64,000 nucleotides of DNA, taken from Candidatus Kerfeldbacteria bacterium. GTDB lineage: Bacteria; Patescibacteriota; Patescibacteriia; SBBC01. The stretch is from NCBI GenBank assembly GCA_016207275.1, contig JACQPY010000012.1, positions 1,706-65,705 on the forward strand. Direction: 5' to 3'. Position 1 is the first letter of the stretch, and each line of letters opens with the position of its first letter. The notes under the pieces were generated by a model. It saw nothing but the letters and a program-made list of their open reading frames with translations. It did not search any database and was not told the DNA's origin. Below, piece by piece: positions 34,768 through 63,102 of this stretch. Both the position numbers and the translations under genes were made by a program.

Positions 34768-37700
34768 ATGGTTCTTATTAACTTCATCCAGCGCCACCAA
34801 AAACCAACCGCCGTCATCCTGGCGGTCGTCTTACTGTCGGCATTCTGGCTGGCCGTGCCGCATGAAGTTAAGGCCGTCGGCGAGGGCATCATCGCCAACA
34901 TCCTGTCGTGGCTGGCGTACCAGTTGATCACCCTGATGGCCAACCTGCTGGTGGTGGTGGTCAACATCTTGGTCGCCGTCGCCCAGTACAACAACTTCCT
35001 CGGCGCGCCGGCGGTTGAGCGCGGCTGGGTGATTGTCCGCGACATCGCCAACATGTTCTTCATTGTGGTTTTGCTGATCATCGCCTTCGGCACGATTTTG
35101 CGACTGGAAAACTACCGCTACAACCGCCTGCTGGCACGGCTCATCGTCATGGCCATCTTGGTTAACTTCTCCAAGTTCATCGCCGGTTTCTTCATCGACT
35201 TCGGCCAGGTCATCATGCTGACCTTTGTCAATGCCTGGCGTGACGTGGCCGCCGGCAACATCACCCACGCCCTCGGCCTGACCGAGATCATTCAGCTCCG
35301 CAACCAACCGCTGCCCAGCGGCCAGGAGATCAGTTCGGGAGCGGTGCTGACCGCGCTGCTGCTCGGCTTGTTCCTGGTGACGGTGGCCGTTATCGTCCTG
35401 GCGATCATGGCGATCGTCCTGATTTTGCGCGTCCTGGCCCTGTGGTTCTTGGTTGTCCTGTCGCCGCTGGCATACCTCTTCCGGACCTACCCGGCGACCG
35501 AGAAATATGCGGCCCGCTGGTGGCAGGAATTCGGCCGTTACGTCGTGGTCGGGCCGGTGATGGCGTTTTTGCTGTGGTTAAGCTTGGCGGTCATGACGGC
35601 GCCGGTGCAGTTTAGCGAAGAAGTGTTTACCGTCGTTAAAACTACCGAGGGATCGGCAGTGATCGAGCCGACCGACAGCGCCACCGCCAACAACGTGGCC
35701 GCCGCCATTTCGACCATTGGCCAGTCCGACAAGCTGTTGGGTTACATCACCGGTATTATGCTCCTGGTCGGCACGCTGATGATTACCCGCGAGCTGGGCG
35801 TGGCCGGCGGCCAGCTGGCTGGGCAGTGGGCCGAGAAGATTCGGGGGTTTGCCACCAAGGCGGCGGTGGTCGGGGGCGCTGGTGCGGCTTTCGGAGCGTT
35901 AGGAGTAGCTGGCGTGACGGTTGGCAGGCCGGCGGCCAAGCTGGCCGGCAAAGGGATTGCGGCTGGCGCAAAAGGGCTTGGCAATGCGATTATCGACCGT
36001 GCACAAGTTGCCCTGGGAGGAATTCCGCTCAGACCGAGCGTCTGGGCCGAGGGATTCAAGCGCGCCAGCGCCCGGCGTCGCCATGATTGGGAGGAAAAAC
36101 GTTGGCAAGCGGCGAACAAGAACATGGAAGAGGCGCTCAAGCCGGCGGTCGGCAAGAAGATGAGCGCTGCCCGGCGAGCCTGGAAATTCGCAGTTGGCGC
36201 CGCCGGTTCGCCGGAATACTTTAAGTATAATCTTCTGACTTTTGGCAACTTCGGTAAAATGATAGCTGGCCGAGGCGGCGAGGTGTTGGGCGGGGATTTC
36301 TCCGAAGCCAGCGAGGACTACAACCGGACGCGAGAGCGAGCCAAGGCCATGGCTCGCGAACGGGAACTAATGCAGGGCTCGCGCGACCTTGGACAGTTTT
36401 ATGTTCAGGAGACCGCTGGTCAACGCGTCCAGTCAGACGTTAATGCGGAGGCAGAAAAAATCAGGTCCGAGCGGACCCGCGATCTTCGCGCTGACGTCAA
36501 CTTCTTCGAAGAGAAGGACCACGAAGGAAAGGTCGTGCGACGCCTGCCGCTGGCTGAATACATCAGCGGTTTGATGCGCGATGAGGGGTATGATCCGACC
36601 TCAGGCGACGAGCGGACCGTGCGACGTCGAGCGGCCCTGGAAAAAGAGCATGATGAGCAGTTGGCGCGGTCACGCCTGGTGAAAGAGGAACAGCAAGGAC
36701 AGCTAACGGCCAAGGTCGCCGAGGTCGCCAAGGACCGGGCTGCCAACCCGGCCAGCCGCTATGGCCGTAAGACGGTCAAAAAGGACAAAGAAGAGGTCGA
36801 AGTCAGCTTCGCCGATGCACTGGATGAAGCCATGGACAAGAAGTTCCCTAAGAATTTTAATCGCTATCTAGAGTCTCAGGGGATTGATCCGCGCGCCAAG
36901 GATGATGGGACTAAGTTGAAGATTGAGGCACTCCGGCCGGGATACGAGGCGATTTTCAAGAAAGAGTTTGAGGACAATTGGAATAAGGAACAGGCTGAAG
37001 CCGAACTGGAGTTAAGTCCAGAATACCAGGATCCGATGGCCACGCGGGAGGAGCGTTATCGCCAGGAAATCCTGAAATCAGCGCCGGAAAACGAGCTCCG
37101 ACGGCGGGGACAAGCAGTGCATGAGGAAGAGGTTAAAAAGCTGCGCGATCAGGCAGCCGCGATCAGGGCCGGCGGATTAACCGAGGGGCAGCATGAACGG
37201 AGAGAGAAGGAGCTGATTGAGGTCATTAAGAAGCTCGAACAGATTGACAAGGATTTGAAGACCCACTCTCCTGGAACGCCGGAGTACTCGCGGCTGATGG
37301 AGGAGCGCGCCGAACGCGAAAAGCAACGGCAGCTGCTTGAGCGTTACCTCAAGCCGAAACCTGGTGAAAAACCGCCGCTGAACGACGATGAGAAGAAAGA
37401 AGGCGAGAAAGAAGCCGAGAAACTGGAAGAGGCAGCCAACCTCCAAGAAGGAATGGCTAAGCGTCGCGTGACCGATACTGAGCTGCGGTTGATGGACGAA
37501 GCCATAGACGCGCAGGAGAAGAAAGTGCGCGACCAGGCTAAGGTCGTCAGCCGGCTCCGTCCGGCCGTGCCCAAGGAACTGCGACGCGAGCTGCGCGCGT
37601 CGATTGCCGAGAAAAAGAAGGAAATTACGACTGAGCAGTGGCAGGAGCAGCTGTCAATTTTCGAGGACGCGGTTCGGCGCGGCGATGCGAGTACGGCTGC

Positions 37701-38424
37701 GGCCGCGGGTATCCGGGCGGCCGAGGATTTTAACTTGAATGAGTTTCAAACCAACTTAGGATACGATTCCGACGCTGAAGGCCTGAAACAGATGATAGAC
37801 GATTACTTCATCGGCAAACTGGGCATGTCCGAGGATCAGGCGCTGTCGATCGCCAACGACATGTCGCATGCCGCCGAAAAGGTCAACCACTGGGGAGTGG
37901 CGCGGGCAGTCAAGACCGACACCGTTACCGGTCGGCAGCACTTCCAGGATGAGCTTGATCGAGAAATGGAGGTAAGCGCTGAGATCCGGAAAGGCGACTT
38001 TGAAGGCACTATCCGTCGCTTTAATCGTCTGGCCTGGGGCAAAGAAGTGATTGGCGCCGGTACTGACATGGAGCGCGCCTCGCCAGCAGAACGCGCCGAG
38101 TACTATCGCCAGACCGGTGACCGCAGCTTCGTTTCTCTGCCTTACGGCCTGGCCTTCTTGGCTGAAAACTTCGGAAAGTCCGAGCGGAACATCAAAACCG
38201 GTCGGTTCAACCCCAACTATGCCACCAAGTTGTTCGACCCGGCAAACCGCCAGATGCTTGAAATGTTAGTAAAAGCGCTTGGTAATTTTACCCAGCTCGG
38301 GGATTCGCGTAAGGTCACGATGCCGGAAATCTTAGCACTCATACGGCAGTTCGGCGCCAGGGATCGCAGCGCGGCAGGCGATTTCGACCGCTTGCGAGAC
38401 TTCTGGCGCCGGTCCGGCCGCTAG
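34768..38424 (+). CDS. VirB6/TrbL-like polytopic membrane protein with a ~900-aa charged/coiled-coil cytoplasmic tail
   Basis: 1218 aa. The N-terminal ~330 aa hold at least 6 hydrophobic helices rich in aromatic and small residues, typical of TrbL/VirB6. The remainder is a highly charged, low-complexity K/E/R-rich region. Confidence 0.5.
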   Translation: MVLINFIQRHQKPTAVILAVVLLSAFWLAVPHEVKAVGEGIIANILSWLAYQLITLMANLLVVVVNILVAVAQYNNFLGAPAVERGWVIVRDIANMFFIVVLLIIAFGTILRLENYRYNRLLARLIVMAILVNFSKFIAGFFIDFGQVIMLTFVNAWRDVAAGNITHALGLTEIIQLRNQPLPSGQEISSGAVLTALLLGLFLVTVAVIVLAIMAIVLILRVLALWFLVVLSPLAYLFRTYPATEKYAARWWQEFGRYVVVGPVMAFLLWLSLAVMTAPVQFSEEVFTVVKTTEGSAVIEPTDSATANNVAAAISTIGQSDKLLGYITGIMLLVGTLMITRELGVAGGQLAGQWAEKIRGFATKAAVVGGAGAAFGALGVAGVTVGRPAAKLAGKGIAAGAKGLGNAIIDRAQVALGGIPLRPSVWAEGFKRASARRRHDWEEKRWQAANKNMEEALKPAVGKKMSAARRAWKFAVGAAGSPEYFKYNLLTFGNFGKMIAGRGGEVLGGDFSEASEDYNRTRERAKAMARERELMQGSRDLGQFYVQETAGQRVQSDVNAEAEKIRSERTRDLRADVNFFEEKDHEGKVVRRLPLAEYISGLMRDEGYDPTSGDERTVRRRAALEKEHDEQLARSRLVKEEQQGQLTAKVAEVAKDRAANPASRYGRKTVKKDKEEVEVSFADALDEAMDKKFPKNFNRYLESQGIDPRAKDDGTKLKIEALRPGYEAIFKKEFEDNWNKEQAEAELELSPEYQDPMATREERYRQEILKSAPENELRRRGQAVHEEEVKKLRDQAAAIRAGGLTEGQHERREKELIEVIKKLEQIDKDLKTHSPGTPEYSRLMEERAEREKQRQLLERYLKPKPGEKPPLNDDEKKEGEKEAEKLEEAANLQEGMAKRRVTDTELRLMDEAIDAQEKKVRDQAKVVSRLRPAVPKELRRELRASIAEKKKEITTEQWQEQLSIFEDAVRRGDASTAAAAGIRAAEDFNLNEFQTNLGYDSDAEGLKQMIDDYFIGKLGMSEDQALSIANDMSHAAEKVNHWGVARAVKTDTVTGRQHFQDELDREMEVSAEIRKGDFEGTIRRFNRLAWGKEVIGAGTDMERASPAERAEYYRQTGDRSFVSLPYGLAFLAENFGKSERNIKTGRFNPNYATKLFDPANRQMLEMLVKALGNFTQLGDSRKVTMPEILALIRQFGARDRSAAGDFDRLRDFWRRSGR

Positions 38425-42328: not shown

Positions 42329-42841
42329 ATGCCGCAGTTTATCGTCCCGCAGTTCATCGATGTCGAGGACAAAATCATTGGTCCGATCTCGGTCCGCCAA
42401 TTCCTGACTTTCCTGGTCGGGGCCGCGCTCATTTTTGCCAACTATCAGATTGTCTACAAAGTTTTGTACCCCAATTTCTGGGTTTTTGCCATTAGTTCAA
42501 TCTTCATTTTCGCCGTGGCCGGCACCTTTGCCTTTTTGAAAATAAACGGCCGAACCTTCCACTACTTTCTACTCAACTTATTTGTCACTATGCAAAAGCC
42601 GCGGCTACGAGTCTGGAATAAACGACTGCGCCGCAGCGATTTCCTCACCAAGGAAGAAGCGGTTGAGATCGCCGCCCCCCTACCGGTCAAAGCACCCCTG
42701 ACCATGCGCAAGCTGACCGAGCTGTCGTTGATCGTCGATACCGGCGGCGCCTACCGCGAAGAGCTTCCCGAAGAGTCCACCCCGCCGTCCACAACCACTA
42801 AACCCGGCACGGTCACTGACATCTTCGCCGACCTCGCCTAG
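42329..42841 (+). CDS. PrgI-like (VirB3-like) small membrane protein of Gram-positive/CPR-type T4SS
   Basis: 170 aa. N-terminus MPQFIVPQFIDVEDKIIGPISVRQFLTFLVGAALIF matches the characteristic PrgI-family start, followed by two TM helices. Confidence 0.5.
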   Translation: MPQFIVPQFIDVEDKIIGPISVRQFLTFLVGAALIFANYQIVYKVLYPNFWVFAISSIFIFAVAGTFAFLKINGRTFHYFLLNLFVTMQKPRLRVWNKRLRRSDFLTKEEAVEIAAPLPVKAPLTMRKLTELSLIVDTGGAYREELPEESTPPSTTTKPGTVTDIFADLA

Positions 42842-42845: not shown

Positions 42846-43547
42846 ATGGTCAAAACGAAAGTCGTCAAACCGAAACCCAGCGTCAAAATTCAGAAGAAAG
42901 CTGAGTCGACTCAACGGTACCTCGACATCCTCGAGATTAAAGATGACGTGGTCGTGCTCAAGGATGGTTCGGTCCGCGCGGTCGTCTTGGTCGCATCGAT
43001 TAACTTCGACCTGAAGAGCGAGGAAGAGCAAGCGGCGGTCATTTCCAGCTACGTCCAGTTTCTCAACGCGATTGATTTTCCCCTCCAGATCGTAGTCCAA
43101 TCGCGCAAGCTCAACATTGACAGCTACTTGGATAAACTCAAGGACCTCGAAAAGCAGCAAACCAACGAGCTGCTGAAGCAACAAACGGTTGAGTACCGCC
43201 AATACATTCAAGAGTTGGTCGAAATCGCCGACATCATGACTAAGCGATTTTACGTGGTGGTGCCGTACTCGGAACAGTCGGGACGACCAAAGAGGTTCTG
43301 GTCGCGAGCGGTCGACGCTTTTTCGCCGACCAACGTGATCCACCTCAAACAGAAGAAGTTTGAAGAGTTCCGGACCGAGCTCTTCAAGCGGGTCGAGTAC
43401 GTCATCGACGGCCTGGCTTCGGCCGGGCTAAAATCGGCGGTGCTCGATACCCAGAGCTTGATCGAGCTGTACTACAACACCTACAACCCCGAGACCTCGG
43501 CTGAACAGCATTTGGTTGAGGTCGGGAAGATCCAATTAGAAGCTTAG
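42846..43547 (+). CDS. VirB4-family N-terminal domain encoded as a separate ORF (first piece of a split VirB4)
   Basis: 233 aa. YLDILEIKDDVVVLKDGSVRAVVLVASINFDLKSEEEQAAVISSYVQFLNAIDFPLQIVVQSRKL follows the conserved N-terminal pattern of Gram-positive VirB4/TcpF/PrgJ-type ATPases. Confidence 0.5.
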   Translation: MVKTKVVKPKPSVKIQKKAESTQRYLDILEIKDDVVVLKDGSVRAVVLVASINFDLKSEEEQAAVISSYVQFLNAIDFPLQIVVQSRKLNIDSYLDKLKDLEKQQTNELLKQQTVEYRQYIQELVEIADIMTKRFYVVVPYSEQSGRPKRFWSRAVDAFSPTNVIHLKQKKFEEFRTELFKRVEYVIDGLASAGLKSAVLDTQSLIELYYNTYNPETSAEQHLVEVGKIQLEA

Positions 43548-43662: not shown

Positions 43663-45564
43663 ATGGCTGACATCAACCTATCCAAACTTAAAGCTGGTCA
43701 GACCCTGCCGACCAAGCAGGAAATCCAGCGTGAACGACCGCCGGCGCCGGTCAGCGCCGCCGAGCTGATCGAGGCCGAGCGGATCTACCGTCGCGGCGTC
43801 ATTTCAGTCCGTGACCTAATCGCCCCGGCGGCCCTGCGCGTCGATACCAACTTCATTCAGCTTGGCGCCAAGCACGTTCGGACCCTGTTTGTCGTGACCT
43901 ACCCGCGTTACATTGCGGTCGGCTGGTTTGCGCCGATCATCAACTTCAATTCGCCGCTTGACATCGGCATGTTCTTCTACCCGGTCGAGTCGAAAATCAT
44001 TTTGAAGCAGCTGAAGAACAAGGTTGGTGCGCTCGAGGCGCAAATCCTGTCCGACGCCGAGAAGGGCGCGCCGCGTGACCCGATCCGCGAGACGGCGCTG
44101 CGCGATATCGAGAAGCTGCGCGACGACCTGACCCAAGGCACCGAGCGGTTTTTCCAGTTCGCCCTCTACGTTACGCTCTACGCCAACTCGCGCGACGAGC
44201 TCGATCGCTTGACCGAAAAGATCGAGGGCTTGTTCGGCTCGCGGTTGGTCTACAGCAAGCGGGCGTTATTCCAGGCAGAGCAAGGATTTGTCTCGACCGT
44301 GCCGCTCGGCCTTGACCAACTACTGGTCACCTTCAACATGAACTCCAGCCCGGTGGCCAGTTCGTTCCCCTTCATCTCCAGCGACTTGACCAGCGACAAC
44401 GGCATTCTCTACGGCATTAACCGACACAACAACTCGTTGATTCTGTTCGATCGGTTTAGCTTGCAGAACGCCAATTTTACGGTTTTTGCCACCTCGGGCG
44501 CCGGCAAGAGTTACGCGGTTAAGTTAGAAATTCTCCGTTCGATGATGTTCGGCACTGATATGATTGTCATCGATCCGGAGAACGAGTACAAGTATTTATC
44601 GGACGCGGTTGGCGGTACCTACGTCAGCATTTCGCTTAACTCCGATTCGAAAATCAACCCGTTTGACTTGCCGCGAGCCGTCCACGGCGATGAAAAGCCG
44701 GCCGACATCATCCGCTCCGCGGTCATTACCCTGAAATCGCTCATTCGCTTGATGCTGGGCGAGCTGACTAACGAAGAAGATTCGATCATTGATCGAGCGC
44801 TGTTAGAAACCTACGCCAAGAAAGACATCACCCCGGACAGTGACCTGGCGACGGTTGAACCGCCACTGATGAAGGACTTTGAAGAGGTCCTGGCCGGCAT
44901 GGTCGGGGCGGAAAATCTGGTCCAGCGGCTGAAGAAGTACACCGAAGGCACCTTTGCCGGCTTGTTCAACAGCCCAACCAACGTCGAGGTCAACAACCAG
45001 CTGATGGTTTTCTCGGTTCGGGATTTGGAAGACGAGCTGCGGTCGATCGGCATTTCGATGATTGTCAGCTACATTTGGAACGTCGCCCGCTCCAAGCTCA
45101 AGAAGCGCATTCTGACGATTGATGAGGCTTGGTGGCTGATGCAGAACGAAGATTCGGCCAAGTTCATCTACTCGCTGGTCAAGCGGGCCCGTAAGTACTA
45201 CCTCGGCGTGACCACCATCACCCAGGACGTCAATGATTTCCTCCGCTCGCCCTACGGTCAGGCGATCGTCAACAACTCGGCCTTGCAGCTGTTGATGAAG
45301 CAGTCGCCGGCCGGCATCGATATTGTGGCCAAAACCTTTTTGCTGACCCAGAGCGAGCGCTACCTCTTGCTCGAAGCTGGCGTCGGCGAGGGGATCTTCT
45401 TTGCCGGCGCCAAGCACGCCGCCATCAAGGTGGTGGCCAGTTACACCGAGGATCAAGTGATTACCTCCGACCCGCGGCAGCTGCTGGAGATCGAGGAAGC
45501 CAAGAAGGAGTTTGAAGAGTCGCTGGCCCGCGGTGAGGTTCCAACCACCGCCGATGTCCGCTGA
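43663..45564 (+). CDS. virB4: VirB4/TrbE/CagE-family T4SS ATPase (second piece; contains the ATPase domain)
   Basis: 633 aa. DLIAP...YIAVGWF, DIGMFFYP, Walker A FATSGAGKSYAV, IVIDPENEY, TQ sensor region. Confidence 0.85.
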   Translation: MADINLSKLKAGQTLPTKQEIQRERPPAPVSAAELIEAERIYRRGVISVRDLIAPAALRVDTNFIQLGAKHVRTLFVVTYPRYIAVGWFAPIINFNSPLDIGMFFYPVESKIILKQLKNKVGALEAQILSDAEKGAPRDPIRETALRDIEKLRDDLTQGTERFFQFALYVTLYANSRDELDRLTEKIEGLFGSRLVYSKRALFQAEQGFVSTVPLGLDQLLVTFNMNSSPVASSFPFISSDLTSDNGILYGINRHNNSLILFDRFSLQNANFTVFATSGAGKSYAVKLEILRSMMFGTDMIVIDPENEYKYLSDAVGGTYVSISLNSDSKINPFDLPRAVHGDEKPADIIRSAVITLKSLIRLMLGELTNEEDSIIDRALLETYAKKDITPDSDLATVEPPLMKDFEEVLAGMVGAENLVQRLKKYTEGTFAGLFNSPTNVEVNNQLMVFSVRDLEDELRSIGISMIVSYIWNVARSKLKKRILTIDEAWWLMQNEDSAKFIYSLVKRARKYYLGVTTITQDVNDFLRSPYGQAIVNNSALQLLMKQSPAGIDIVAKTFLLTQSERYLLLEAGVGEGIFFAGAKHAAIKVVASYTEDQVITSDPRQLLEIEEAKKEFEESLARGEVPTTADVR

Positions 45565-45640: not shown

Positions 45641-46183
45641 ATGATGCGACGCTGGCTGATTATCAGCGCGTTGTTGGCGGCGGCGGGAGCGGCGGCGCTG
45701 GTCGTCGTGCGACAGCCGAAGACCGGCCCGGCGACGAATACGGCGCCGATTTCTACGGTCAACCGAACAGTCATCCCTGAAAACACCAACGCCGAACCCG
45801 CGCCAACGACCGACCAACTTTTAGCCACGGCGCGAGTTTTTGCCGAGCGGTTCGGTTCGACCTCGAGCGACGCGCCGACCGCGCACCTCCAGGCTGTCCT
45901 ACCGTTTTGCAGCTCCGCTTTGACCCAGTCATTTCGCCGATTAATCAACCAGCCGACCAACTCGCCGGGCAACGCCACCCGTACGACCAGTCGTGCCTTG
46001 GCTTTCGCAACGCCGTCGGTCGATGAACGGCTTGGGTTAGCGGAGGTGGTAGTTACGCTTCAGCGGCAGGAGCAAATCGGGACTGAACCAGCGACGATTT
46101 ACAACCAAGAGCTGGCGCTCCAGTTCGTTCGCGAAAGCGGCGCCTGGAAAGTGAACGTCGCGACCTGGGGTAAGCAATCGTAA
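45641..46183 (+). CDS. Hypothetical secreted/membrane-anchored protein
   Basis: 180 aa. N-terminal hydrophobic segment LIISALLAAAGAAALVVV. Confidence 0.45.
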   Translation: MMRRWLIISALLAAAGAAALVVVRQPKTGPATNTAPISTVNRTVIPENTNAEPAPTTDQLLATARVFAERFGSTSSDAPTAHLQAVLPFCSSALTQSFRRLINQPTNSPGNATRTTSRALAFATPSVDERLGLAEVVVTLQRQEQIGTEPATIYNQELALQFVRESGAWKVNVATWGKQS

Positions 46184-46189
46184 CGTCGC

Positions 46190-46894
46190 ATGGCAGTCAA
46201 AGCCTCCAACCCGAAGCAAGCGATCAAGGAACAAGAACGTCGGTTCCGCGAAGAAACGCGGCGCCTGCGTCAGGAGCCAGCCACCGGCAGCGAGGGGTAC
46301 ACTAACGTCTACCTTAAAGAACCTGTCGAGCCCGAAGAGGAGCAGCCAGCCGATGATCAAGCTTCCGGCCAAGTTTCCACAGCTCGATTTCCTCGGCGGC
46401 AGTCGTTCCGGCCAGCCAGCGTTGAAGAAGAACCTTCGCCCACCCCCAAAACAAGCGGCCAGACCGGGCCAGGCCAAGGACCTGAGCCTGCACCCACCGC
46501 CGCTGAGCCGAGCGGACGGACTTCAACTGAGCAGCTGTCTCGCGGCGCCCAGTTTGCCGAGCGAACCAGGGCTTTGCAACAAGCGGCCGGCACGGCTCAG
46601 CAAGCGGCTCAGACTGAGCGTACGGTGGCAGCGACTGCCCGCGGAATAGCGGCGACTGCCCGGGGCGCCGCAGCGGTAGGACGGGGCATCGCCTTACTTT
46701 TCTCTCCACCAACCTGGCCGGTCTGGATCGGCGTGCTGATCGCCGCCAGCATCTTTTTCGTCGTCCTCTTGGTGCTGGCCGCGGCCTGCATTCCACTCGG
46801 CACCGGCGAAGGATTGACCGAAAAAGCTGCGCTGGGGAGCGCCATCCTGAGCCTGCGATTGGCGCTGGGAATTGATTGCGGCGGGTCGCCATGA
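46190..46894 (+). CDS. Hypothetical protein with a low-complexity N-terminal half and a C-terminal two-helix membrane anchor
   Basis: 234 aa. WPVWIGVLIAASIFFVVLLVLAAACIPLG. Possibly pilin-like. Confidence 0.4.
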   Translation: MAVKASNPKQAIKEQERRFREETRRLRQEPATGSEGYTNVYLKEPVEPEEEQPADDQASGQVSTARFPRRQSFRPASVEEEPSPTPKTSGQTGPGQGPEPAPTAAEPSGRTSTEQLSRGAQFAERTRALQQAAGTAQQAAQTERTVAATARGIAATARGAAAVGRGIALLFSPPTWPVWIGVLIAASIFFVVLLVLAAACIPLGTGEGLTEKAALGSAILSLRLALGIDCGGSP

Positions 46895-48381
46895 AACGCA
46901 ACCGCGCGGTTAGCCTGATCCTCGCCGCGGTAGCGTGGTCAGCCTTGATCACAACGGTCAGCGCCCAGATCCGCCCGGCCGAACTTGATGCTGGCGACGG
47001 CGCCGGCACTACCGCCCCGCAGCTGGTTGACTTCGGCTCTTGCACGTACCAAACCGACGATGGCCGGGAGTCGTGCGTCAATAACGTGACCGCCACCGAT
47101 TGCGCCAAAAGAAAGGGAGGCCAGTTCGCCGCCCTGACCAGCTGCCGGCTGACCTTCACGCCGAACGTGCCGATTCCGGGATTGTTTGAGGGGACGCAGC
47201 GCGTTGATGAAACGCTGCTCGGTCGGTACATCAGCGGCTTCTACGTTTTCTTCGCCGGCGTGGCCGGGATTTTGGCGGTGGTGATGATGATGTGGGGCGG
47301 TTTCCACTACATTACGGCCGCCGGCAACCCGCAGCGGATGAACGAAGGCAAGAGCATCATTAGCGGCGCAATCATCGGACTGATCCTAGTGCTCATCTCG
47401 TACCTGTTGCTGAACGCCATTAATCCGCGGTTGATTCAGTTCCAGGTGCCGAGCTTACGGTACATTCCGCAAATTTTGGTGGCCGATCAGTACTGTGAAG
47501 CGCAGGGGCCGAAAGCCATTGCCGCCGCTCAGCAGGCCGGGGCCGAGTGCGGCGACTACGTTGATTACGAAGACAACGGCGTTCGACGGACGTGCATTTC
47601 CTTGTACATTCCCGGTCAGATAGCCTTACCCTGGGACCAGCAGCTGGCTTGCTTCCCACGGGTAGGAATTGACAAAGTCACCGACCCCAGCGGCAAAACC
47701 TCGACCAGTACGCACACCGTCTACGAACGGCGGAAAGCGGCGGGCAAAGACGGCGTTTGCGAAAACAATAACTACACCGCTGACGATCGGTGTGTTTATA
47801 CGCAGCGGATTCTCGGTTTGCAAACGTGGCTGGCCGGAGCGTGTAAAAAGGCGAAGTATGAAACCAAAATAACAGCTCCAAGTCAGGGAAAGGATATTTG
47901 TCACTACACCAAGTTTTTGTTTTGCCCGACCAGCGATTCGGAACAGGTGCGGTGTGATGCGGGGGTGCGCACACGCGAGACGGACTGCTGGAGTGGTGGG
48001 AAGCCTAGAGAGATGACTTCTGCTCCAACCGCCTTTTCCGGTTTGACCGCTGTTTGTCGAGATCCCAACGTCGGCACCCGGCCAATCGAATTAATCGACG
48101 GTATCTGTTGTCAGGCTAACCTAAAACGCGATATATTTTGTACGAGTCGAGAAGTTGAAGATACCGTTGAGTTGTCGACAGAAGAGTGTGCCGCTCTCAG
48201 TGCCGATGCGGGTACGCCGTTTGCCCAAGTGTGTTACACTGAACGCCTCGGTGACCGGGGAACGATTCGAAGGATCTGTGAGGACGTCGTTACCCGATGC
48301 GATTTACCGAAGAAATGCAAGGCGCGAATCGATTTCATTTTTGTCAACACCGACCCGCCGGGCTCCCCGCTGTTCAAATAA
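46876..48381 (+). CDS. Secreted Cys-rich protein containing a VirB2/TrbC-like (pilin-like) two-helix hydrophobic hairpin; paralog of the 49637 gene
   Basis: 501 aa. Signal peptide, then TFTPNVPIPGLFEG...FYVFFAGVAGILAVVMMMWGGFHYITAAGNPQRMNEGKSIISGAIIGLILVLISYLLLNAINP (about nt 47170-47430) is about 70% identical to the equivalent segment of the 49637 product. 14+ Cys in the C-terminal half. Confidence 0.5.
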   Translation: MRRVAMKRNRAVSLILAAVAWSALITTVSAQIRPAELDAGDGAGTTAPQLVDFGSCTYQTDDGRESCVNNVTATDCAKRKGGQFAALTSCRLTFTPNVPIPGLFEGTQRVDETLLGRYISGFYVFFAGVAGILAVVMMMWGGFHYITAAGNPQRMNEGKSIISGAIIGLILVLISYLLLNAINPRLIQFQVPSLRYIPQILVADQYCEAQGPKAIAAAQQAGAECGDYVDYEDNGVRRTCISLYIPGQIALPWDQQLACFPRVGIDKVTDPSGKTSTSTHTVYERRKAAGKDGVCENNNYTADDRCVYTQRILGLQTWLAGACKKAKYETKITAPSQGKDICHYTKFLFCPTSDSEQVRCDAGVRTRETDCWSGGKPREMTSAPTAFSGLTAVCRDPNVGTRPIELIDGICCQANLKRDIFCTSREVEDTVELSTEECAALSADAGTPFAQVCYTERLGDRGTIRRICEDVVTRCDLPKKCKARIDFIFVNTDPPGSPLFK

Positions 48382-48396
48382 TCCTGCCCCTTCACC

Positions 48397-49635
48397 ATGG
48401 CTATTAACTGGAAACGACTGCTGCTGGTGCTCGGGTTCCTCTTGGTTACCATTGGTATTGGCGTGACGATTTACTTCGTCTTCTTCCGCAATATCTTCGG
48501 TCCGCCGGCCGCTAACCAGAACATCAACGGCGTCATTTTCCCGCTGGCGAATGAAAACCGCAATGCCGGCGTGGGACCAGCTAACGTTAATGCCTTGCCA
48601 AACGTCAACGCGGCGGTCGGTCAACCGCGGCCAGTGGCTGACGGCGGGCCGACGCAGGTGGTGCCGATCGTCAGCACGCTGCCGGGCGGGGCGACGCTGG
48701 CCAACAACGGCCGTGATCTACTCTACTACGATCCGCGGACCGGCAAGTTCTACCAAATTTCTCCCGACGGCCGGACCCGGACCGAGCTGACGCCGGACCG
48801 CTATCCGGCGGCCGACAAGGTGACCTGGGCGCCGCTTCGTGACAAGGCGGCGATCGAGTTTCCCGACGGCAGCAAGTTCATCTACGACTTTCGACAGCAG
48901 AAGCAGTATACCCTGGCCCCGGAAATGGAAGAAATCACTTTCTCGCCGACCGGCGACAAGATTTCGTTCAAGTTCATTGGCGACGACCCGGCTGACCGGT
49001 TGTTGGTGACGGCAAATTTCGACGGCACCGGCGCGACCACCATTGAGCCGCTGGCCGACAAAGCTGACCAGTTTGACGTTAACTGGTCACCGCTCGGCAA
49101 CGTCGTCGCTACCTTCCGCGAATCGATCGATGCCGATCGGCAGCGGGTCATCCCGATTGGGTTATTGGGGGAAAATTTTTCCTCCTTTAACGTCCCTGGT
49201 CGCGGTTTCCAACACATCTGGTCGACCGACGGCAGTAACATTTTGTTCAGCGTCTTCCGCAAAGACACCGGCTACAATCCAAACTTGTACATTGCCAGCG
49301 GGCGGACCGAATCGCTCGGCAACAACATGATTAACCTGGACTTGCAAACGTGGCCGGACAAGTGCGTCTTCGGGTCGGCGGCCGCCTTGTTCTGCGCCGT
49401 GCCGCAGTACTTGGAACAGGGAACCGGCTTGTTCCCGAACCTGGCCAGCGAAGTGCCGGACGACTTCTACCGAATCGACTTGGCCACTGGTCAGAAGCAG
49501 CTGATCGCCCGGCCGGTCAATGCCGACGGCGAGTCGTCTTACACCGCCTCGCAGCTGATACTGTCAGCCGATGAGACCGTGCTGTACTTCTTTGACCAGC
49601 GGACCAATCAGGTCCAGAAAATTCAGTTGAAGTAG
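48397..49635 (+). CDS. Membrane-anchored beta-propeller (TolB/PD40-like) protein
   Basis: 412 aa. N-terminal TM LLLVLGFLLVTIGIGVTIYFVFF. Repeated hydrophobic/Gly/Asp beta-strand patterns. Confidence 0.45.
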   Translation: MAINWKRLLLVLGFLLVTIGIGVTIYFVFFRNIFGPPAANQNINGVIFPLANENRNAGVGPANVNALPNVNAAVGQPRPVADGGPTQVVPIVSTLPGGATLANNGRDLLYYDPRTGKFYQISPDGRTRTELTPDRYPAADKVTWAPLRDKAAIEFPDGSKFIYDFRQQKQYTLAPEMEEITFSPTGDKISFKFIGDDPADRLLVTANFDGTGATTIEPLADKADQFDVNWSPLGNVVATFRESIDADRQRVIPIGLLGENFSSFNVPGRGFQHIWSTDGSNILFSVFRKDTGYNPNLYIASGRTESLGNNMINLDLQTWPDKCVFGSAAALFCAVPQYLEQGTGLFPNLASEVPDDFYRIDLATGQKQLIARPVNADGESSYTASQLILSADETVLYFFDQRTNQVQKIQLK

Positions 49636-49636
49636 C

Positions 49637-51169
49637 ATGCGACGCTGGTGGGTGGTGTTAAGCTTGACAGTAGGGCTGACGATTGCGGTCGGCGCGTCGG
49701 CTCAGAGTACTGGCTGCTGCGTTACGTCAAGCCAAACGTGTGTCCCAAACCTAACCCAGTTGGCCTGCGATCAAACCTACCCGGGCGGCAGCGCCGGCGG
49801 CAACTTTTACGCAGTCGCCAGCTGCAACGACGTGCCTTTTTGCGCCACGCTGGGCAAGTGCGAACGGACCAGCCCGGCTGACTGCAAGAACCTGAAGCGC
49901 TGGGAGTGCGACCAGTTGAGCGGCCAGGGCTACAATTTTTTTGCGAACCAGGTTTGCGGCGGCGGCGTGGCCACGGGACGTTGCTGCGCCGAGGACAAAT
50001 CAGCGCGTAACCCGTCGTGTCGCGAAGACCTTGATCGTAATAGTTGCCAGTTGATTGGCTGGGAGTACTACACCACCGCCTGCAGCGCTGTCGCTCACTG
50101 TCCGCAAGCGCGGTCCGGAACGCCGTTCGGCAAAGTCATCGGTTCCTGTACCTTGCCTGACGGCACGTGCACGAATAGCTTGAGCCTCGAAGACTGTACT
50201 AAGCGGCAAGGCAAGTTTGCAAAGGATCAGGTATGCCCGTTATTTTTCACGCCCAACGTCCCAATTCCGGGGCTGTTCGAAGGCGAGCAGCAGGTCAGCG
50301 GCACGTTATTTTCCCGCTACCTCGGCGCTTTTTTCGTCTACTTCATCGGCGTGGTCGGTATCTTGGCCGTGGTCATGATGATGTGGGGCGGGTACCACTA
50401 CATCGTGTCAGCCGGAAATCCGCAGAAGATGAACCAGGGCAAGGAAATCATCAGCGGGGCGATCATTGGCTTGGTACTGGCCCTAACCTCATTCTTACTG
50501 TTGCAGACGATTAACCCGGCCTTGGTCAACTTTCGCGGGATTCTACCGATCTACATCGGCCAGATTTTAGTCAGGGAAGAGCGCGAGGCCACGCCGCTGA
50601 AGAAAGACGTGGCGACCAAAGCGGACGTGAGCACCTCGACGCTCAAATCGATATTGTCGCTGGTCAAGCAAAATAGCTACGATCGGATGGTTCTATCTGA
50701 AGCGAACAACGATAAGGAGGTTGCCTATCGGGCCCTGTCCATCCTCTTCATTGAGTCGTCAGGCGTTGCTAACGCAAAATCAATCGCCAACGCTTACGGA
50801 CTGATGCAGTTGCTTCCGGCGACAGCGGAAACCTGCGGCGTCGCTGTCAACGATCTGTTCGATCCAGCCAAGAACATCAAGGCCGGCGTTTGTTACCTCA
50901 AGAGTCTCTTGAGCAATCCTTGCCCGACGCCGGAACAGATGAAAAAAAGAAATGTCGTGTGCCGAGTTGGTGAGGTTTGCAAAAAAAGCGAGATCAAGTT
51001 TGTCTACGCTGCCTACAACGGCGGATCAGCCGCAAACTTCTGTTCCAGCACTTGTCTCGGCCAAACCTGGTGGCAGTGCACGGAAAACCCTGGATATGAG
51101 GAAACGAGAGTCTACGCTCAAAAGGCTCAGCTGGTGTATGACTGGCTGTGGGAGCAGAAGGTGTACTAG
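49637..51169 (+). CDS. Tripartite protein: Cys-rich secreted N-domain, pilin-like hydrophobic hairpin, then a C-terminal lytic transglycosylase (SLT/VirB1-like) domain
   Basis: 510 aa. Signal peptide. Pilin-like block FFTPNVPIPGLFEGEQQV...MMMWGGYHYIVSAGNPQKMNQGKEIISGAIIGLVLALTSFLLLQTINP. SLT motifs ESSGVANAKS...AYGLMQLLPATAETCGV...AAYNGG. Confidence 0.6.
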   Translation: MRRWWVVLSLTVGLTIAVGASAQSTGCCVTSSQTCVPNLTQLACDQTYPGGSAGGNFYAVASCNDVPFCATLGKCERTSPADCKNLKRWECDQLSGQGYNFFANQVCGGGVATGRCCAEDKSARNPSCREDLDRNSCQLIGWEYYTTACSAVAHCPQARSGTPFGKVIGSCTLPDGTCTNSLSLEDCTKRQGKFAKDQVCPLFFTPNVPIPGLFEGEQQVSGTLFSRYLGAFFVYFIGVVGILAVVMMMWGGYHYIVSAGNPQKMNQGKEIISGAIIGLVLALTSFLLLQTINPALVNFRGILPIYIGQILVREEREATPLKKDVATKADVSTSTLKSILSLVKQNSYDRMVLSEANNDKEVAYRALSILFIESSGVANAKSIANAYGLMQLLPATAETCGVAVNDLFDPAKNIKAGVCYLKSLLSNPCPTPEQMKKRNVVCRVGEVCKKSEIKFVYAAYNGGSAANFCSSTCLGQTWWQCTENPGYEETRVYAQKAQLVYDWLWEQKVY

Positions 51170-51171
51170 GA

Positions 51172-51262
51172 GGTTAGGTCTTAGGAAATTAGGAAGTTAG
51201 GTTTTAGGGGATTAGGGAATTAGGGGTTAGGAAATTAGGCAGTTAGGAAGTTAGGTTGTTAG
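51172..51262. repeat. Tandem array of about 13 TTAGG units separated by 1-3 purine-rich nt (degenerate telomere-like (TTAGG)n)
   Basis: ggTTAGGtcTTAGGaaaTTAGGaagTTAGGttTTAGGGgaTTAGGGaaTTAGGGgTTAGGaaaTTAGGcagTTAGGaagTTAGG, read directly. Confidence 0.75.
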
Positions 51263-51265
51263 CAA

Positions 51266-51310
51266 TAAAAAGAAAGCCCGTGAGCACGGAGTTGAACCAT
51301 GCGCACGGGC
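51266..51310 (-). terminator. Hairpin (GCCCGTG-21 nt-CACGGGC) followed on the minus strand by TTTCTTTTT; candidate terminator of the minus-strand zinc-ribbon gene
   Basis: Read directly. The loop is large, so stability is moderate. Confidence 0.45.
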
Positions 51311-51369
51311 GGATCTTCGGCTACCAACCTCCTTGTGGTGGGGGAATTACGTTCACCGAAGCGAACGTA

Positions 51370-51636
51370 CTAGCTGGTCGTCCCGTACTGCCGGGCGAGG
51401 ACGCCATCGATGACGCCATCGCAGGGCTTGCAGAACGGCCCGGTCTCGCCCGAAGCCAAAGGCTCCAGGCACCGCGAGCACAGCTGCTTGGGGCCATCCG
51501 AGATGGTCAGGAACCCTCCCTTGCCGAGCACCAGGACCTTATCGTCCACGTGTACGGCTCGTCTGATCGGGTCGCTCTGAACCTCGGTGAGAGGCAGTGT
51601 GCGCATGATCGCGGGACCAGCAGGTGGTGCTTCCAT
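51370..51636 (-). CDS. Small zinc-ribbon domain protein (C-x2-C-x12-FC-x2-C)
   Basis: 88 aa. AAGGAAG SD 5 nt upstream of the ATG on the minus strand. LCSRCLEPLASGETGPFCKPCDG resembles zinc_ribbon_2-type motifs. The overlapping + strand ORF has poor composition. Confidence 0.55.
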   Translation of the reverse strand: MEAPPAGPAIMRTLPLTEVQSDPIRRAVHVDDKVLVLGKGGFLTISDGPKQLCSRCLEPLASGETGPFCKPCDGVIDGVLARQYGTTS

Positions 51637-51945
51637 GTTAAACTTCCTTGTTTTTGACCCCCTCAGTAAGGGTCAGGTGTACATCACAAACAACAAGGGG
51701 AAAGATGGCTAGATGCCGCTCAGGCGGCGTCGGTACTCAATAGGAAATCCTCCATGGGTTGAAGGCAGCTTCGAAGTGGAAAGGTCAAGGGAGGGGGCGG
51801 CCGCAGACTGGTGGGCTACAACCCGTACGAACATGCTGATGGTAGCAGTCTCCAGCATGCCGATGCGAGCCTGATGGGATGTTGTCCCAACTGAGTTTTC
51901 AGGCCTCTGGGCCAAACCCCCTCCACGTTGAGACGAGCGAATAGT
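51637..51945 (-). ncRNA. About 300-nt 5' leader or structured RNA element between a consensus promoter and the zinc-ribbon gene (possible riboswitch or cis-regulatory RNA; unclassified)
   Basis: Long-range complementarity (GGAGGGGGTTTGGCC ... GGCCGCCCCCTCC) closes a domain containing internal hairpins (GGCATGCTGGAGACTGCTACCATCAGCATG). No ORF. Confidence 0.3.
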
Positions 51946-51950
51946 TAAAG

Positions 51951-51978
51951 ACTATACCTCTTGTGTTGAGTGTGTCAA
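51951..51978 (-). promoter_or_regulatory. Consensus sigma70 promoter on the minus strand: TTGACA-16-TATAGT
   Basis: Minus-strand TTGACA is the complement of 51973-51978. TATAGT is the complement of 51951-51956. Confidence 0.6.
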
Positions 51979-51980
51979 CC

Positions 51981-59712: not shown

Positions 59713-60240
59713 TCATACAAATGATTTTCCGCTCTCTTCTTTGATACATTTTTCGCAGGGTTTATCGAGATGACGGAGAGTAAAGATGATGGAAATGAGC
59801 ATAAACACTATGGCAACTAGCACTACGTACCAACGGTACTGGATGATTGTCAACACAGTACCAAAACCGAGGAAGCCAAGAATCGCCGCAACACACGACG
59901 AGCATGCCGCAGATGCCAGGATCGCCGCGAGTGTGGCTGAAGCCCCGCCTGCACCAGCCTTGCCGATTGCTTGCCACCGCTTGCCTCCCCGGTGGCGGCG
60001 GAAGAGTTCAATCTGGATCACGGTGAATAATGAAGCAAGAAGCGCCAGTCCGGCCATGAGGACATAGTCTCGGTCCGTGAAGATGCTCAATTGGAACGCG
60101 AGACTGTTACCTGGGATGGTCAGGACGGGGATGCCGACGAACACCATGTACCACCCCACGGTCAGAAATAACAGAAGCAAAACATTGGTTCTCAATCGGA
60201 AGATGCGCGCTATCGTCTTAGTAAGGGCCATGTTAAACAA
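59713..60240 (-). CDS. MerT-like membrane protein (Cys-pair in first TM) in a low-GC island
   Basis: 175 aa. ILASAACSSCVAAILGFLGFG resembles the MerT TM1 Cys-containing motif. C-terminal CEKC. Confidence 0.4.
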   Translation of the reverse strand: MFNMALTKTIARIFRLRTNVLLLLFLTVGWYMVFVGIPVLTIPGNSLAFQLSIFTDRDYVLMAGLALLASLFTVIQIELFRRHRGGKRWQAIGKAGAGGASATLAAILASAACSSCVAAILGFLGFGTVLTIIQYRWYVVLVAIVFMLISIIFTLRHLDKPCEKCIKEESGKSFV

Positions 60241-60676
60241 CCTTCCGAAAACCGTTCATTCGGTAAATGGCGAATATCAGCAGCGCAATCGAAACCAATG
60301 AGAAGATCGGAGCGACACGACTCAAGAACACGTTGGCGGAAAGTGGCAGGAAGACCGCGATGGCGGGAATACAAGCTGGGCATGCGCCGAAGAACACGCC
60401 GACAAACGAGCCGGTCGCACCGGTTTTGACGCTTCCGACCGGACAGCAGGGTTGCACGGTTTTGTGGTATGTGTAGGTGCCAACGACAGTGCCAGACAAG
60501 AGGGCAATGGTCGGGTACAGATACGTGAGATACGATGAGCTGAGGTAGACGCGAAACCAGTCATCCAGCCCGCGGAGGGGGATGGCCGGCCACAAGAAGA
60601 TGGCTGCCGTGGTTCCCAACGCTGCCAGGACCGGCCAACGATGTCGAAAGATTTTTAGAATGAGGAAATTACTCAT
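60233..60676 (-). CDS. Membrane protein with CCP and CPAC thiol motifs (MerT/DsbD-like metal or thiol handling)
   Basis: 147 aa, 4 TM. QPCCPVGS and GACPAC. Confidence 0.4.
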   Translation of the reverse strand: MSNFLILKIFRHRWPVLAALGTTAAIFLWPAIPLRGLDDWFRVYLSSSYLTYLYPTIALLSGTVVGTYTYHKTVQPCCPVGSVKTGATGSFVGVFFGACPACIPAIAVFLPLSANVFLSRVAPIFSLVSIALLIFAIYRMNGFRKVV

Positions 60677-60681
60677 ATCCG

Positions 60682-61239
60682 TTAACCGACGATAGAACGA
60701 ACGAGCTTGAGATACTGTTCGTCGACAATCTGCGTGTTAAAGTCTCGGACAGTGCCATCTCCGTTGAGCAGGTACTTCGAGTCGAGAAATTTAATTTTGC
60801 TGCTGGCTGCCAGTCCGTTGTTCAGTGCCAACCTCCAGGATGGCCTGGCAAATTGTTCTCTCCATCTCCGAAGATCCGACGGTTGTTCCTTAGGATCAAC
60901 AAAGATCACCAGCACGTTGAAGCTTTGGGGCCCCAGTTCATCTTGGAGTTTCGCTACTGCTTCGGCGCCGATCTGGCACGGCGTGCACCAGGTTGCCGTG
61001 AACCAGATGATCGCCGGTTTCCCCTTGAGTGTACCGTTAGAAATTTTCTGTCCGTCAATATCTGTCACGCTAAACTCAGGAAAAGCGTTGTGAGCAGGAG
61101 TATTGACGCTTTGATTCCCGGGTTGATTTGCATTGGCGGAACGGCTAGTCGATCCGCCACGGTAAAAGAAAATGAATCCAATAATTATGAACGGCAAGGC
61201 GCAACAAATTCCGGCAATGGTGATGAATTTTTTCATCAT
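60682..61239 (-). CDS. TlpA/ResA-like thioredoxin-fold thiol-disulfide oxidoreductase lipoprotein
   Basis: 185 aa. Signal peptide with lipobox-like ...ITIAGIC. WCTPC active site. Confidence 0.75.
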   Translation of the reverse strand: MMKKFITIAGICCALPFIIIGFIFFYRGGSTSRSANANQPGNQSVNTPAHNAFPEFSVTDIDGQKISNGTLKGKPAIIWFTATWCTPCQIGAEAVAKLQDELGPQSFNVLVIFVDPKEQPSDLRRWREQFARPSWRLALNNGLAASSKIKFLDSKYLLNGDGTVRDFNTQIVDEQYLKLVRSIVG

Positions 61240-61280
61240 TTATTCATGAAGTCTCGCCACTGATAACACAGGCAATATTT

Positions 61281-62228: not shown

Positions 62229-62325
62229 GGTTTATCATTCCTATTTTTTACCTGCTGACCGCCGAATTGTTCTCGCCGGGCAGATAAAATTTTACCTATA
62301 ACATCTAAGGTGAATCCAGATAAAT

Positions 62326-62985
62326 TCATATATTTTTATGGCTATTGCCGAAACGCCGATAAAATGCGAGGGGCAAGAACGAACTTAAAAGAATAATCAT
62401 TCCGACCCACAGAAACACTGTTTGAAATCCTGCGCGGTCAATCAAAAATCCGCCCAAAGCAGTTGTCCCGGCCACGCCAAAACCAATAATGGTGTTATAA
62501 ATACTCCACTCAAACGCCGCTTGTTGTTTATCAATATGGTGGGTAAAAAGCGCATTCCAAGAAGGGTAGCTTAAGGCGTTGCCTAAACCACAGAAGAAAT
62601 TGGCCAAGAATACGTGCCAAGGAAGAGTACTGAAAGCGAGGACTAAGGGGCACAGAGCAATGACCGCGTAACCGCCCGAAAGAATGCCGACAATCCTGTT
62701 TTCGCTCGACGTTTTATCAACGAACCGGGAAAAAGGAATTTGTAGTGTAGATTTAGTGATCAAAAAAACCATTGAGGCGATGCCAACCACCGTTATCGTC
62801 CCGCCACTAATCCCTTTAGCAACAAACACAGCAACAAAGGGTCCGGCCATGGCAAAAATGGAAGTGAAAAAAAGTTCAGTGCCAATGAGTAGAAAAACAA
62901 GCCTGTTAATAGCGGTCTTTTTGTGAAAGGTGCACGCACCTTCAGGAGACCGCTGACATTCACTTATTGAGGTGAACAGCGGCAT
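62326..62985 (-). CDS. Half-size MFS-like transporter (6 TM; possibly a truncated gene)
   Basis: 219 aa, corresponding to the C-terminal six helices of an MFS permease. Only 117 nt separate it from merA upstream. Confidence 0.45.
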   Translation of the reverse strand: MPLFTSISECQRSPEGACTFHKKTAINRLVFLLIGTELFFTSIFAMAGPFVAVFVAKGISGGTITVVGIASMVFLITKSTLQIPFSRFVDKTSSENRIVGILSGGYAVIALCPLVLAFSTLPWHVFLANFFCGLGNALSYPSWNALFTHHIDKQQAAFEWSIYNTIIGFGVAGTTALGGFLIDRAGFQTVFLWVGMIILLSSFLPLAFYRRFGNSHKNI

Positions 62986-63102
62986 GGGGTAGATTGGAGA
63001 ATTTTTAGCAGTGAATTTCTAAACTAACACCCGCAACCGCCCTTTGGATCATCACCATAAATCTGGTCCATAATTCGTTCCTGACTCACCTTTTTAAGGC
63101 CT

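Follow-up and report, generated by a model that had tools for sequence, protein, structure and literature searches.

Type IV secretion systems (T4SSs) are among the few machines of Patescibacteria shown to be essential for epibiotic life, and their function is unknown (PMC10633639, PMC12857230). The possession of VirB2-like pilins is regarded as the most surprising feature of these systems, as T4SSs of the Gram-positive type are thought to be devoid of them (PMC10633639, PMC12857230). Such pilins belong to the T4SSs of Patescibacteria, S. epibionticum being unable to do without them (PMC10633639, PMC12102498, PMC12857230), and proteins of the Pfam family PF18895 are treated as VirB2-like (PMC12102498, PMC12857230). 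Filament formation has not been shown for any PF18895 member (PMC12857230). Also described are arrays of pilin paralogs interrupted by non-pilin genes, as well as the recG/radA context found in class ABY1 (PMC10633639, PMC12102498, PMC12857230). A 2025 survey concluded that VirB1 is missing from most of the Patescibacteria in which VirB2-like pilins occur, and did not settle which factor opens the wall (PMC12102498). The DNA analysed here, referred to as the window, is a stretch of 64,000 nucleotides from a metagenome-assembled genome (MAG) of Candidatus Kerfeldbacteria (Patescibacteria, class ABY1; contig JACQPY010000012.1). It carries a chromosomal T4SS cluster of the Gram-positive type (MPF_FATA-like), in which the usual set of small pilins is replaced by two large secreted proteins with a pilin-like hairpin, one of them fused to a lytic transglycosylase domain.

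Two large paralogous proteins share a pilin module

The two proteins, paralog A and paralog B, are encoded at positions 46876..48381 and 49637..51169 of the window, on the plus strand, as are all features of the T4SS cluster given below. Paralog A consists of a signal peptide, one unit of four Cys residues, the pilin module and a 300-aa ectodomain with 20 Cys, making 24 Cys in total. Its length is 501 aa from TTG 46876 or 496 aa from ATG 46891. The latter is probably the true start; this ATG overlaps the stop codon of the upstream open reading frame (ORF) as ATGA, and a database entry 100% identical to A (P0023, 'hypothetical protein HY567_02040 [Candidatus Kerfeldbacteria bacterium]') begins at the same codon. 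The signal peptide (46891..46965), recognised by hydropathy and sequence inspection, reads MKRNRAVSLILAAVAWSALITTVSA|Q and ends in an AXA-type site. The pilin module of A (aa 90-202; 47143..47481) is composed of an FTPNVPIPG motif, a first transmembrane helix (TM1), the GNPQRMNEGK loop, a second helix (TM2) and an INP motif. It is followed by the C-terminal ectodomain with its 20 Cys (aa 203-501; 47482..48378), which is beta-rich and an orphan: no Pfam match was found for it, and the full-length A model gave no significant Foldseek match in PDB or BFVD. The predicted model of A has an overall pLDDT (predicted local distance difference test) of 78.8, with about 90 in the C-terminal domain, and most of the 20 Cys are invariant or nearly so among 25 orthologs.

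Paralog B (510 aa, 28 Cys) has a signal peptide, four 4-Cys units, the pilin module, a linker and an SLT lytic transglycosylase domain. The N-terminal ectodomain (aa 23-199; 49703..50233) contains 20 Cys in approximately four units of about 40-45 aa, which were modelled as small beta-hairpin/helix folds (pLDDT 70-85) and vary in number across orthologs (0-20 Cys). The pilin module of B occupies aa 200-312 (50234..50572). In a BLASTP comparison, A and B are 52% identical over 187 aa (E 7e-56), and a core module of 113 aa, which holds the FTPNVPIPGLFEG, MMMWGG[FY]HYI, AGNPQ[RK]MN[EQ]GK, IISGAIIGL and INP motifs, is 67% identical. The original prediction, made from the DNA sequence without database searches, had proposed a shared, motif-bearing block of ~90 aa in two Cys-rich secreted proteins with two hydrophobic helices. 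The sharing, the motifs, the signal segments and the Cys content were all found as proposed, and only the length had to be corrected, to about 113 aa, or 187 aa when one upstream Cys unit is included. In the explanation favoured below, A and B are ancient paralogs.

The gene between the paralogs (48397..49635) encodes a TolB/PD40-like beta-propeller protein of 412 aa, predicted to be membrane-anchored by an N-terminal TM helix. The PD40 match is weak. A profile of the propeller orthologs matched TolB at about 2-6e-4 and designed beta-propellers down to 4e-11 when compared with PDB, in agreement with the membrane-anchored propeller predicted earlier. As the ATG of A overlaps the preceding stop codon and B begins 1 nt past the stop codon of the propeller gene, A, propeller and B look like one translationally coupled unit.

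The lytic transglycosylase domain of paralog B

The C-terminal domain of B (aa 356-510; 50702..51166), which ends in a conserved Cys-containing tail, matched the SLT family-1 profile PF01464 with 55.5 bits against a gathering score of 21.3. The ESSGVANAKS, GLMQLLPATA and AAYNGG strings are present. In an alignment of 22 fusion proteins, E373, S374, G388, Q391, Y460, N461 and G463 are invariant, so that the putative catalytic pair Glu373-Ser374 (50753..50758) is found in 22/22 sequences; an ES dipeptide also lies inside the SLT match in 13/13 further fusions. The SLT family profile matched MltC (E 6.8e-17), with the Glu-Ser pair aligned to the IESS motif of MltC, the site of the catalytic Glu in family-1 lytic transglycosylases.

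The fold prediction agrees with this assignment. In the AlphaFold2 model of B, pLDDT exceeds 90 over aa 330-510, and a disordered linker of ~40 residues separates TM2 from the SLT domain. Foldseek returned 42 PDB matches at E<=1e-3, the best down to 1e-5, and the best 50 include MltF, MltE, Slt70, MltC, LtgA and MltD. No NCBIfam match to a VirB1-specific model was obtained for B, only weak matches to generic MltF, MltC and flagellar lytic transglycosylase models. Thus, the SLT domain and catalytic Glu expected by the original prediction were recovered by profile, alignment and fold, and the C-terminal domain of B, which has all catalytic motifs of family-1 lytic transglycosylases, is a predicted enzyme.

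Recurrence of the fusion and exchange of the hydrolase

Species-representative genomes were scanned, and 82 loci were subjected to ORF and hidden Markov model analysis. The cassette A/propeller/B was found in 15 independent loci. In each of them the large module proteins number two and no more, with a spacing of about 1.25 kb. The architecture is kept in Ca. Kerfeldbacteria and relatives, as a check of homologs among candidate phyla radiation genomes revealed. The window itself likewise contains two modules only, and no small pilins were found within 10 kb of the cassette in any of the 15 loci. The position of B is occupied by an SLT fusion in 13/15 loci and by a fusion to Peptidase_M15_4 in the remaining two (P0020 in locus L003, and L018). 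VanY/M15 or FGE-sulfatase-like domains are carried by module proteins of related clusters. At E<=1e-3 the module family has ~96,300 representatives, and the domains fused to it in the 77 top representatives are SLT (11), M15_4 (3) and one each of M23, YkuD, M15/VanY, NlpC/P60, CHAP and SLT_2. Of all the observations, this recurrent swapping of non-homologous wall hydrolases on one module speaks most strongly for a joint function of hydrolase and module.

Given that the source is a MAG, and that B is absent from the protein collection searched, where the closest entry is 73% identical, it was considered whether a sequencing or ORF-calling error had joined separate pilin and SLT genes. The ORFs are continuous, the same architecture occurs in 25 or more database proteins and in 13 independent loci from different studies, and linker and SLT domain are colinear in all aligned fusions. 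A different enzyme has, moreover, been fused in parallel at the same position. On the recurrence across independent loci and the colinear alignment, an artefact was rejected, its probability being negligible. As for the architecture having been called unusual, full-text literature searches and the papers cited here disclosed no description of a VirB2-like/VirB1-like fusion, of pilin-module proteins with large ectodomains or of the A/propeller/B cassette; nor does the available text of PMC12102498 contain such a fusion, which recurs here in 13 loci. In databases, these proteins are labelled 'lytic transglycosylase domain-containing protein', 'pilin' or 'hypothetical'.

Several further architectures were observed among the relatives. 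P0036 and a gene of another locus (L023, 5113-6822) have an FGE-sulfatase-like domain in place of the wall hydrolase, and in P0036, labelled Ca. Methylomirabilis, the module is preceded by a Cys-rich DUF7107 unit. Some proteins have 2-4 modules in tandem followed by SLT. Poly-pilins, with many tandem copies of the module in one polypeptide, include P0074, P0076, P0099, P0083, P0089, P0065, P0062, P0064 and P0073; as many as 17 stretches matched the module in a polypeptide of 1775 aa, and P0063, of 552 aa, has 6 module stretches and scores 236 bits. Their linkers are only about 10 residues long, and some of these proteins end in SLT. No mention of such polytopic proteins was found in the available parts of the Patescibacterial T4SS papers cited. 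The label 'Candidatus Nanoarchaeia archaeon' of the MAG encoding P0073 (three modules plus SLT), and the label 'uncultured Gammaproteobacteria' of several Kerfeldbacteria-type loci, are probably due to mis-binning or mislabelling, a true DPANN occurrence being the less likely alternative.

Family membership and conservation of the pilin module

The modules of both proteins belong to the T4SS_pilin family PF18895, with 42.6 bits for A (aa 117-181) and 44.9 bits for B (aa 229-290) against a gathering score of 26.6. The helices of the module are predicted at residues 112-147 and 152-182 in A, and 224-257 and 262-292 in B. Both also matched model NF045849 (Mbov_0395 pilin-like) over model positions 9-76 of 80, with E 5.5e-7 for A and 1.6e-6 for B; the scores, 29.2 and 27.7 bits, do not reach the equivalog cut-off of 40 set for this curated model. 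No match to TrbC/VirB2 (PF04956) was obtained for A or B at E<=1. In relatives, this family was matched by the same residues of the module (P0067, 33.1 bits against a cut-off of 27.9; P0041, E 0.001).

In both proteins, conservation is highest in the hairpin. The mean pairwise identity among B-type proteins is 72% in TM1, 67% in TM2 and 63-72% in the juxtamembrane motifs, as against 41% in the SLT core, 26% in the linker and 20% in the signal peptide; among 25 A-type orthologs it is 82% in TM1, 76% in TM2 and 37% in the ectodomain. A generic signal-anchor, which would have spoken against the original prediction, was therefore excluded: identity is 67-82% in the hairpin, but falls to 41% in the SLT core and to 20% in the signal peptide. 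As conservation extends over consecutive positions and constrains all helical faces, tight protein-protein packing is implied, whether in an oligomer, a lattice or docking to a machine.

In addition to the modules, the VirB4 and TrsD-like proteins of the locus matched the VirB4 model of Mycoplasma integrative and conjugative elements (ICEs). These two sets of matches hint that the Patescibacterial pilin module may have come with a monoderm MPF_FATA system rather than having been co-opted from diderm T4SSs, a choice left open in PMC12102498.

Membrane topology and disulfide formation

Hydropathy analysis assigned a signal peptide and two TM helices to each of A and B, and inspection of the sequences located a cleavage site of the AXA type in each signal peptide, which reads VSA|Q for A and ASA|Q for B. 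The loop of the hairpin, VSAGNPQKMNQGKE, is short and basic, with two Lys. Since the N-terminus is exported and two TM helices follow, both flanking domains are predicted to lie outside and the loop in the cytoplasm. VirB2-type pilins have the same topology before polymerisation, with the termini outside and the loop cytoplasmic.

A location outside the membrane fits the Cys-rich flanks, the access of the SLT domain to peptidoglycan, and the presence of a DsbA-type gene in the cassette of one comparison locus (L005). This gene, of the DsbA/thioredoxin family, lies at 9333-9965 of L005, between the genes for the propeller and the pilin-SLT protein. Its insertion in the cassette suggests dedicated disulfide formation for the Cys-rich ectodomains, and those of A and B would be disulfide-bonded.

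Probable role of the hairpin proteins

The explanation favoured here, which we hold to be probable, is that the hairpin acts as a module for docking or oligomerisation, specific to the T4SS, and places a VirB1-type hydrolase (B), an ectodomain (A) and the propeller at the machine. The hairpin would serve protein-protein docking or oligomerisation and not lipid anchoring, and would engage the membrane platform of the T4SS (VirB6-like, VirB3, VirB4), where pilin subunits are normally handled. The hydrolase of B, the binding or structural ectodomain of A and the membrane-anchored propeller would in this way be held at the T4SS. Together they may open peptidoglycan and let the apparatus cross the wall, that of the cell itself and possibly that of a host at the contact site. 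The structure so formed would more probably be a heteromeric base or a short stub, and less probably a long homopolymeric pilus.

Several points weigh against this explanation. The model confidence of the hairpin is moderate (pLDDT 60-83). Narrow and broad (221-sequence) module profiles were compared by hhalign with A. tumefaciens VirB2 alone or with a 121-sequence PF04956 alignment; the probabilities, 0.6-1.5% overall and 1-1.5% with the 121-sequence profile, are not significant. Hence, no homology to classical VirB2 is claimed as demonstrated. The module profile gave zero matches to PDB sequences even at E<=10, and pilin structures are absent from the Foldseek matches listed for the full-length A and B models. 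Neither profile-profile comparison nor these fold searches could thus establish that the module is homologous to classical VirB2. Small pilins are possibly encoded elsewhere in the genomes, as the scan for them covered 10 kb around the cassettes. The physical association of A and B with the T4SS, the wall targeted and the stoichiometry are inferences, and the sequence does not decide between own and host wall. The conservation of all faces of the hairpin is, finally, equally expected of a true polymerising pilin. Thus, of the VirB2/TrbC-type resemblance noticed at the outset, membership of the T4SS_pilin family stood, above the gathering score in both proteins, but the link to PF04956 did not. 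The term 'VirB2/TrbC-type' as applied to these sequences rests on the Pfam family definition, the cross-matches of relatives, the topology and the gene context. A and B are classed here as PF18895 members of atypical size, 'VirB2-like' describing a probable mode of working and not demonstrated homology.

The same conservation would suit A and/or B being true pilus subunits, their hairpins forming a VirB2-type filament with enzyme domains (lytic transglycosylase or M15 peptidase) and adhesin-like domains on its surface. A pilus studded in this manner could bind and cut the host wall at a distance. A and B are the sole VirB2-like genes in the locus, in place of the small-pilin arrays, the constraint on the hairpin is extreme, as expected of a lattice-forming subunit, and both termini are on the outer side. 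In solved pili, both termini of VirB2/TraA are surface-exposed. The disordered linker between TM2 and SLT could let the domain splay outward, and reviews speculate that Patescibacterial T4SSs build pili (PMC12857230). Each subunit would, on the other hand, have to accommodate 20-35 kDa of extra domains at both ends. An 8-nm five-start filament offers an estimated surface of about 700 square angstroms per subunit, and by this estimate from pilus geometry a homopolymer would need a very wide and crowded outer shell. Relatives with 2-17 modules covalently joined by ~10-residue linkers resemble polytopic membrane assemblies, VirB5-like or VirB11-like genes were not found in the window by profile scans, and Foldseek with the full-length models gave no match to solved pilins. 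A filament of this kind is accordingly rather unlikely.

An extension of the filament model, more speculative still and to be regarded as doubtful, is a 'wall-drilling' pilus of a monoderm epibiont, namely a T4SS filament or stub in which each subunit bears an enzyme or adhesin ectodomain. If this were true, the hairpin polymer would carry the lytic transglycosylase or M15 domain of B and a host-binding domain of A into host peptidoglycan, a conduit would be opened for the uptake of host molecules, and the poly-pilins of 2-17 modules would be pre-linked segments of the same lattice.

Whether as docking module, the favoured explanation, or as pilus subunit, the hairpin protein of one lineage has a wall hydrolase as one of its parts, and glycan-cutting SLT and peptide-cutting M15 interchange there. 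By an argument of the Rosetta-stone type, the pilin module would act jointly with wall cleavage, and the module tolerates, or serves to position, large extracellular cargo. Surveys in which VirB1 and VirB2 are each counted as a gene of its own can arrive at wrong numbers for both. The finding bears on what the essential Patescibacterial T4SS does and on how walls are crossed; its basis is purely computational and concerns uncultivated organisms.

Genetic context of the A/propeller/B cassette

The genes for PrgI, a TrsD-like protein and VirB4 lie 1.3-4.5 kb upstream of the pilin-module genes, on the same strand. The PrgI/VirB3-like protein (42329..42841) was identified by PF12666, with 32.7 bits against a threshold of 27. 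It is followed by a TrsD/TraC-like protein of 233 aa (42846..43547), a separate polypeptide that resembles the N-terminal domain of VirB4; its match to the TrsD model NF041427 is sub-threshold (E 4.7e-7), and PF26593 was matched in orthologs. The VirB4-like ATPase (43663..45564; 633 aa) belongs to the CD1110 family of Gram-positive conjugation (NF045971, 342 bits against a cut-off of 325). The possibility that the split VirB4 is a pseudogene was rejected; the division into 233 and 633 aa is kept in all ortholog loci, together with the gene order, and matches the known TrsD component, and is therefore genuine. Two conserved membrane-anchored proteins of 180 and 234 aa with no assigned function are encoded between virB4 and A (45641..46894), and their orthologs have the same position in the ortholog loci. 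In four of these (L001, L002, L003 and L005), the order is a ~430-630 aa protein, PrgI, TrsD, VirB4, two small genes, A, propeller and B, and VirB4 accompanies 14/15 cassettes, the remaining one (L006) being at a contig end. Further upstream in the window, a protein of 1218 aa (34768..38424) has a weak N-terminal match to TrbL/VirB6 (PF04610, E 0.0057, below the gathering score) and is a candidate for the platform of VirB6 type.

Among the cluster proteins scanned with domain profiles, neither a relaxase nor a coupling-protein domain was recognised. A PHROGs scan of the unannotated cluster proteins gave zero matches, and a tRNA scan detected no tRNAs, as signs of the integration site of a mobile element, in the window. 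The locus is flanked by housekeeping genes (PNPase, LeuRS, KsgA, recG and pentose-phosphate genes), with recG directly downstream of the T4SS cluster. In 4/4 ortholog loci, radA is located between the pilin-hydrolase gene and recG (L001 11318-12670, L002 11491-12834, L003 11366-12709, L005 12005-13348). No tblastn match to radA was obtained anywhere in the 64-kb window, including the interval between B and recG (51170-51980), an 811-bp gap with one doubtful 133-aa ORF.

This chromosomal setting between housekeeping genes would also suit A and B if they were ordinary anchored wall-remodelling or surface proteins, used in growth, division or feeding and merely located beside a T4SS, with the pilin label nominal. 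Surface lytic transglycosylases are numerous in Patescibacteria, and an attack on host envelopes has been proposed for them (PMC11665869); a link to classical VirB2 lacks statistical support, as described above; and the window encodes a separate M23/LysM hydrolase. Such a reading is improbable. The order PrgI/TrsD/VirB4 is strict, with junctions of 1-15 nt or overlapping, in 14/15 cassette loci, PF18895 is matched above the curated threshold, and conservation is much stronger in the hairpin than in the enzyme domain, contrary to what a plain anchor would show. The same module, furthermore, makes up the essential pilin arrays of Saccharibacterial T4SS loci (PMC10633639).

Other features of the window were also recorded. 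The separate hydrolase (9614-10990, minus strand), with LysM and Peptidase_M23 domains, lies outside the T4SS cluster, and the genome therefore has further wall-remodelling enzymes. Three giant tandem ORFs (19209-34763; 1916, 1718 and 1546 aa) lie on the same strand directly upstream of the VirB6-like gene; two of them were scanned and contain BNR/YCF48-like, BACON, fn3 and purple-acid-phosphatase-N (fn3-like) domains, and the three may be T4SS-associated surface adhesins. The leucyl-tRNA synthetase (11132-14116; 994 aa) has an ASCH domain (PF04266, aa 285-385) inserted before the editing domain. The G+C content is 0.46-0.51 at 12001-16000 and 60001-64000, as compared with 0.54-0.64 elsewhere in the window.

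Comparison with known systems

The closest described systems are the pilin arrays of Saccharibacteria (Wang et al. 2023, PMC10633639; Quinonero-Coronel et al. 2025, PMC12102498), which are of the same family, PF18895. The Patescibacterial arrays in general are likewise found in a chromosomal MPF_FATA-like locus with PrgI/VirB3, TrsD and VirB4 (PMC10633639, PMC12102498), and have no relaxase or coupling protein found nearby and, in ABY1, an adjacent recG (PMC12102498). The Kerfeldbacteria locus conforms to this pattern, with monoderm VirB4, TrsD and PrgI/VirB3 in a chromosomal, recG-adjacent position. In size, A (496-501 aa) and B (510 aa) depart from the described arrays. Saccharibacteria-type loci have 5-10 small pilins each (about 90-200 aa; 89-230 aa in the examples fetched), whereas exactly two proteins of ~500 aa are found here, with Cys-rich ectodomains on either side of the module, one of them a peptidoglycan hydrolase. 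VirB1 is treated in PMC12102498 as a separate, mostly missing component, whereas here the hydrolase is fused to the pilin module.

Classical TrbC/VirB2 proteins (PF04956), such as A. tumefaciens VirB2 and RP4 TrbC, resemble A and B in having a signal peptide, a two-helix hairpin and a short basic loop, and in being encoded beside virB3 and virB4, and some relatives of the module pass the PF04956 cut-off. They are, in contrast, mature peptides of about 70 aa without appended domains, whereas A and B are large and have no PF04956 match. The Mbov_0395/MMCAP2_0565 proteins of Mycoplasma ICEs (NF045849) are similar in the near-full coverage of the model and in belonging to monoderm MPF_FATA-type systems, but are small and stand-alone (model length 80), and A and B score below the curated cut-off.

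As regards the enzyme, PrgK (pCF10), TraG (pIP501), CwlT (ICEBs1), TcpG (pCW3) and VirB1 are also SLT- or peptidase-type hydrolases encoded in T4SS operons, and B conforms to this pattern, being on the same strand, with tight junctions and in a conserved position. The Gram-positive T4SS hydrolases share with B the tethering to the membrane and the catalytic domain outside. Enzymes of the PrgK/TraG/CwlT/TcpG type have a single N-terminal TM anchor and often combine SLT with CHAP or NlpC (in part from PMC12102498). B differs from them in its internal, pilin-type hairpin anchor, its extra Cys-rich N-terminal ectodomain and its one catalytic domain. Glycosidase and peptidase activities, alternative or combined, occur across the T4SS hydrolases (PMC12102498) and across the relatives in the position of B. 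VirB2-like pilins in Patescibacterial T4SS loci are in general already known from published work (PMC12102498, PMC10633639), and the fusion of module and hydrolase is what the Kerfeldbacteria locus adds.

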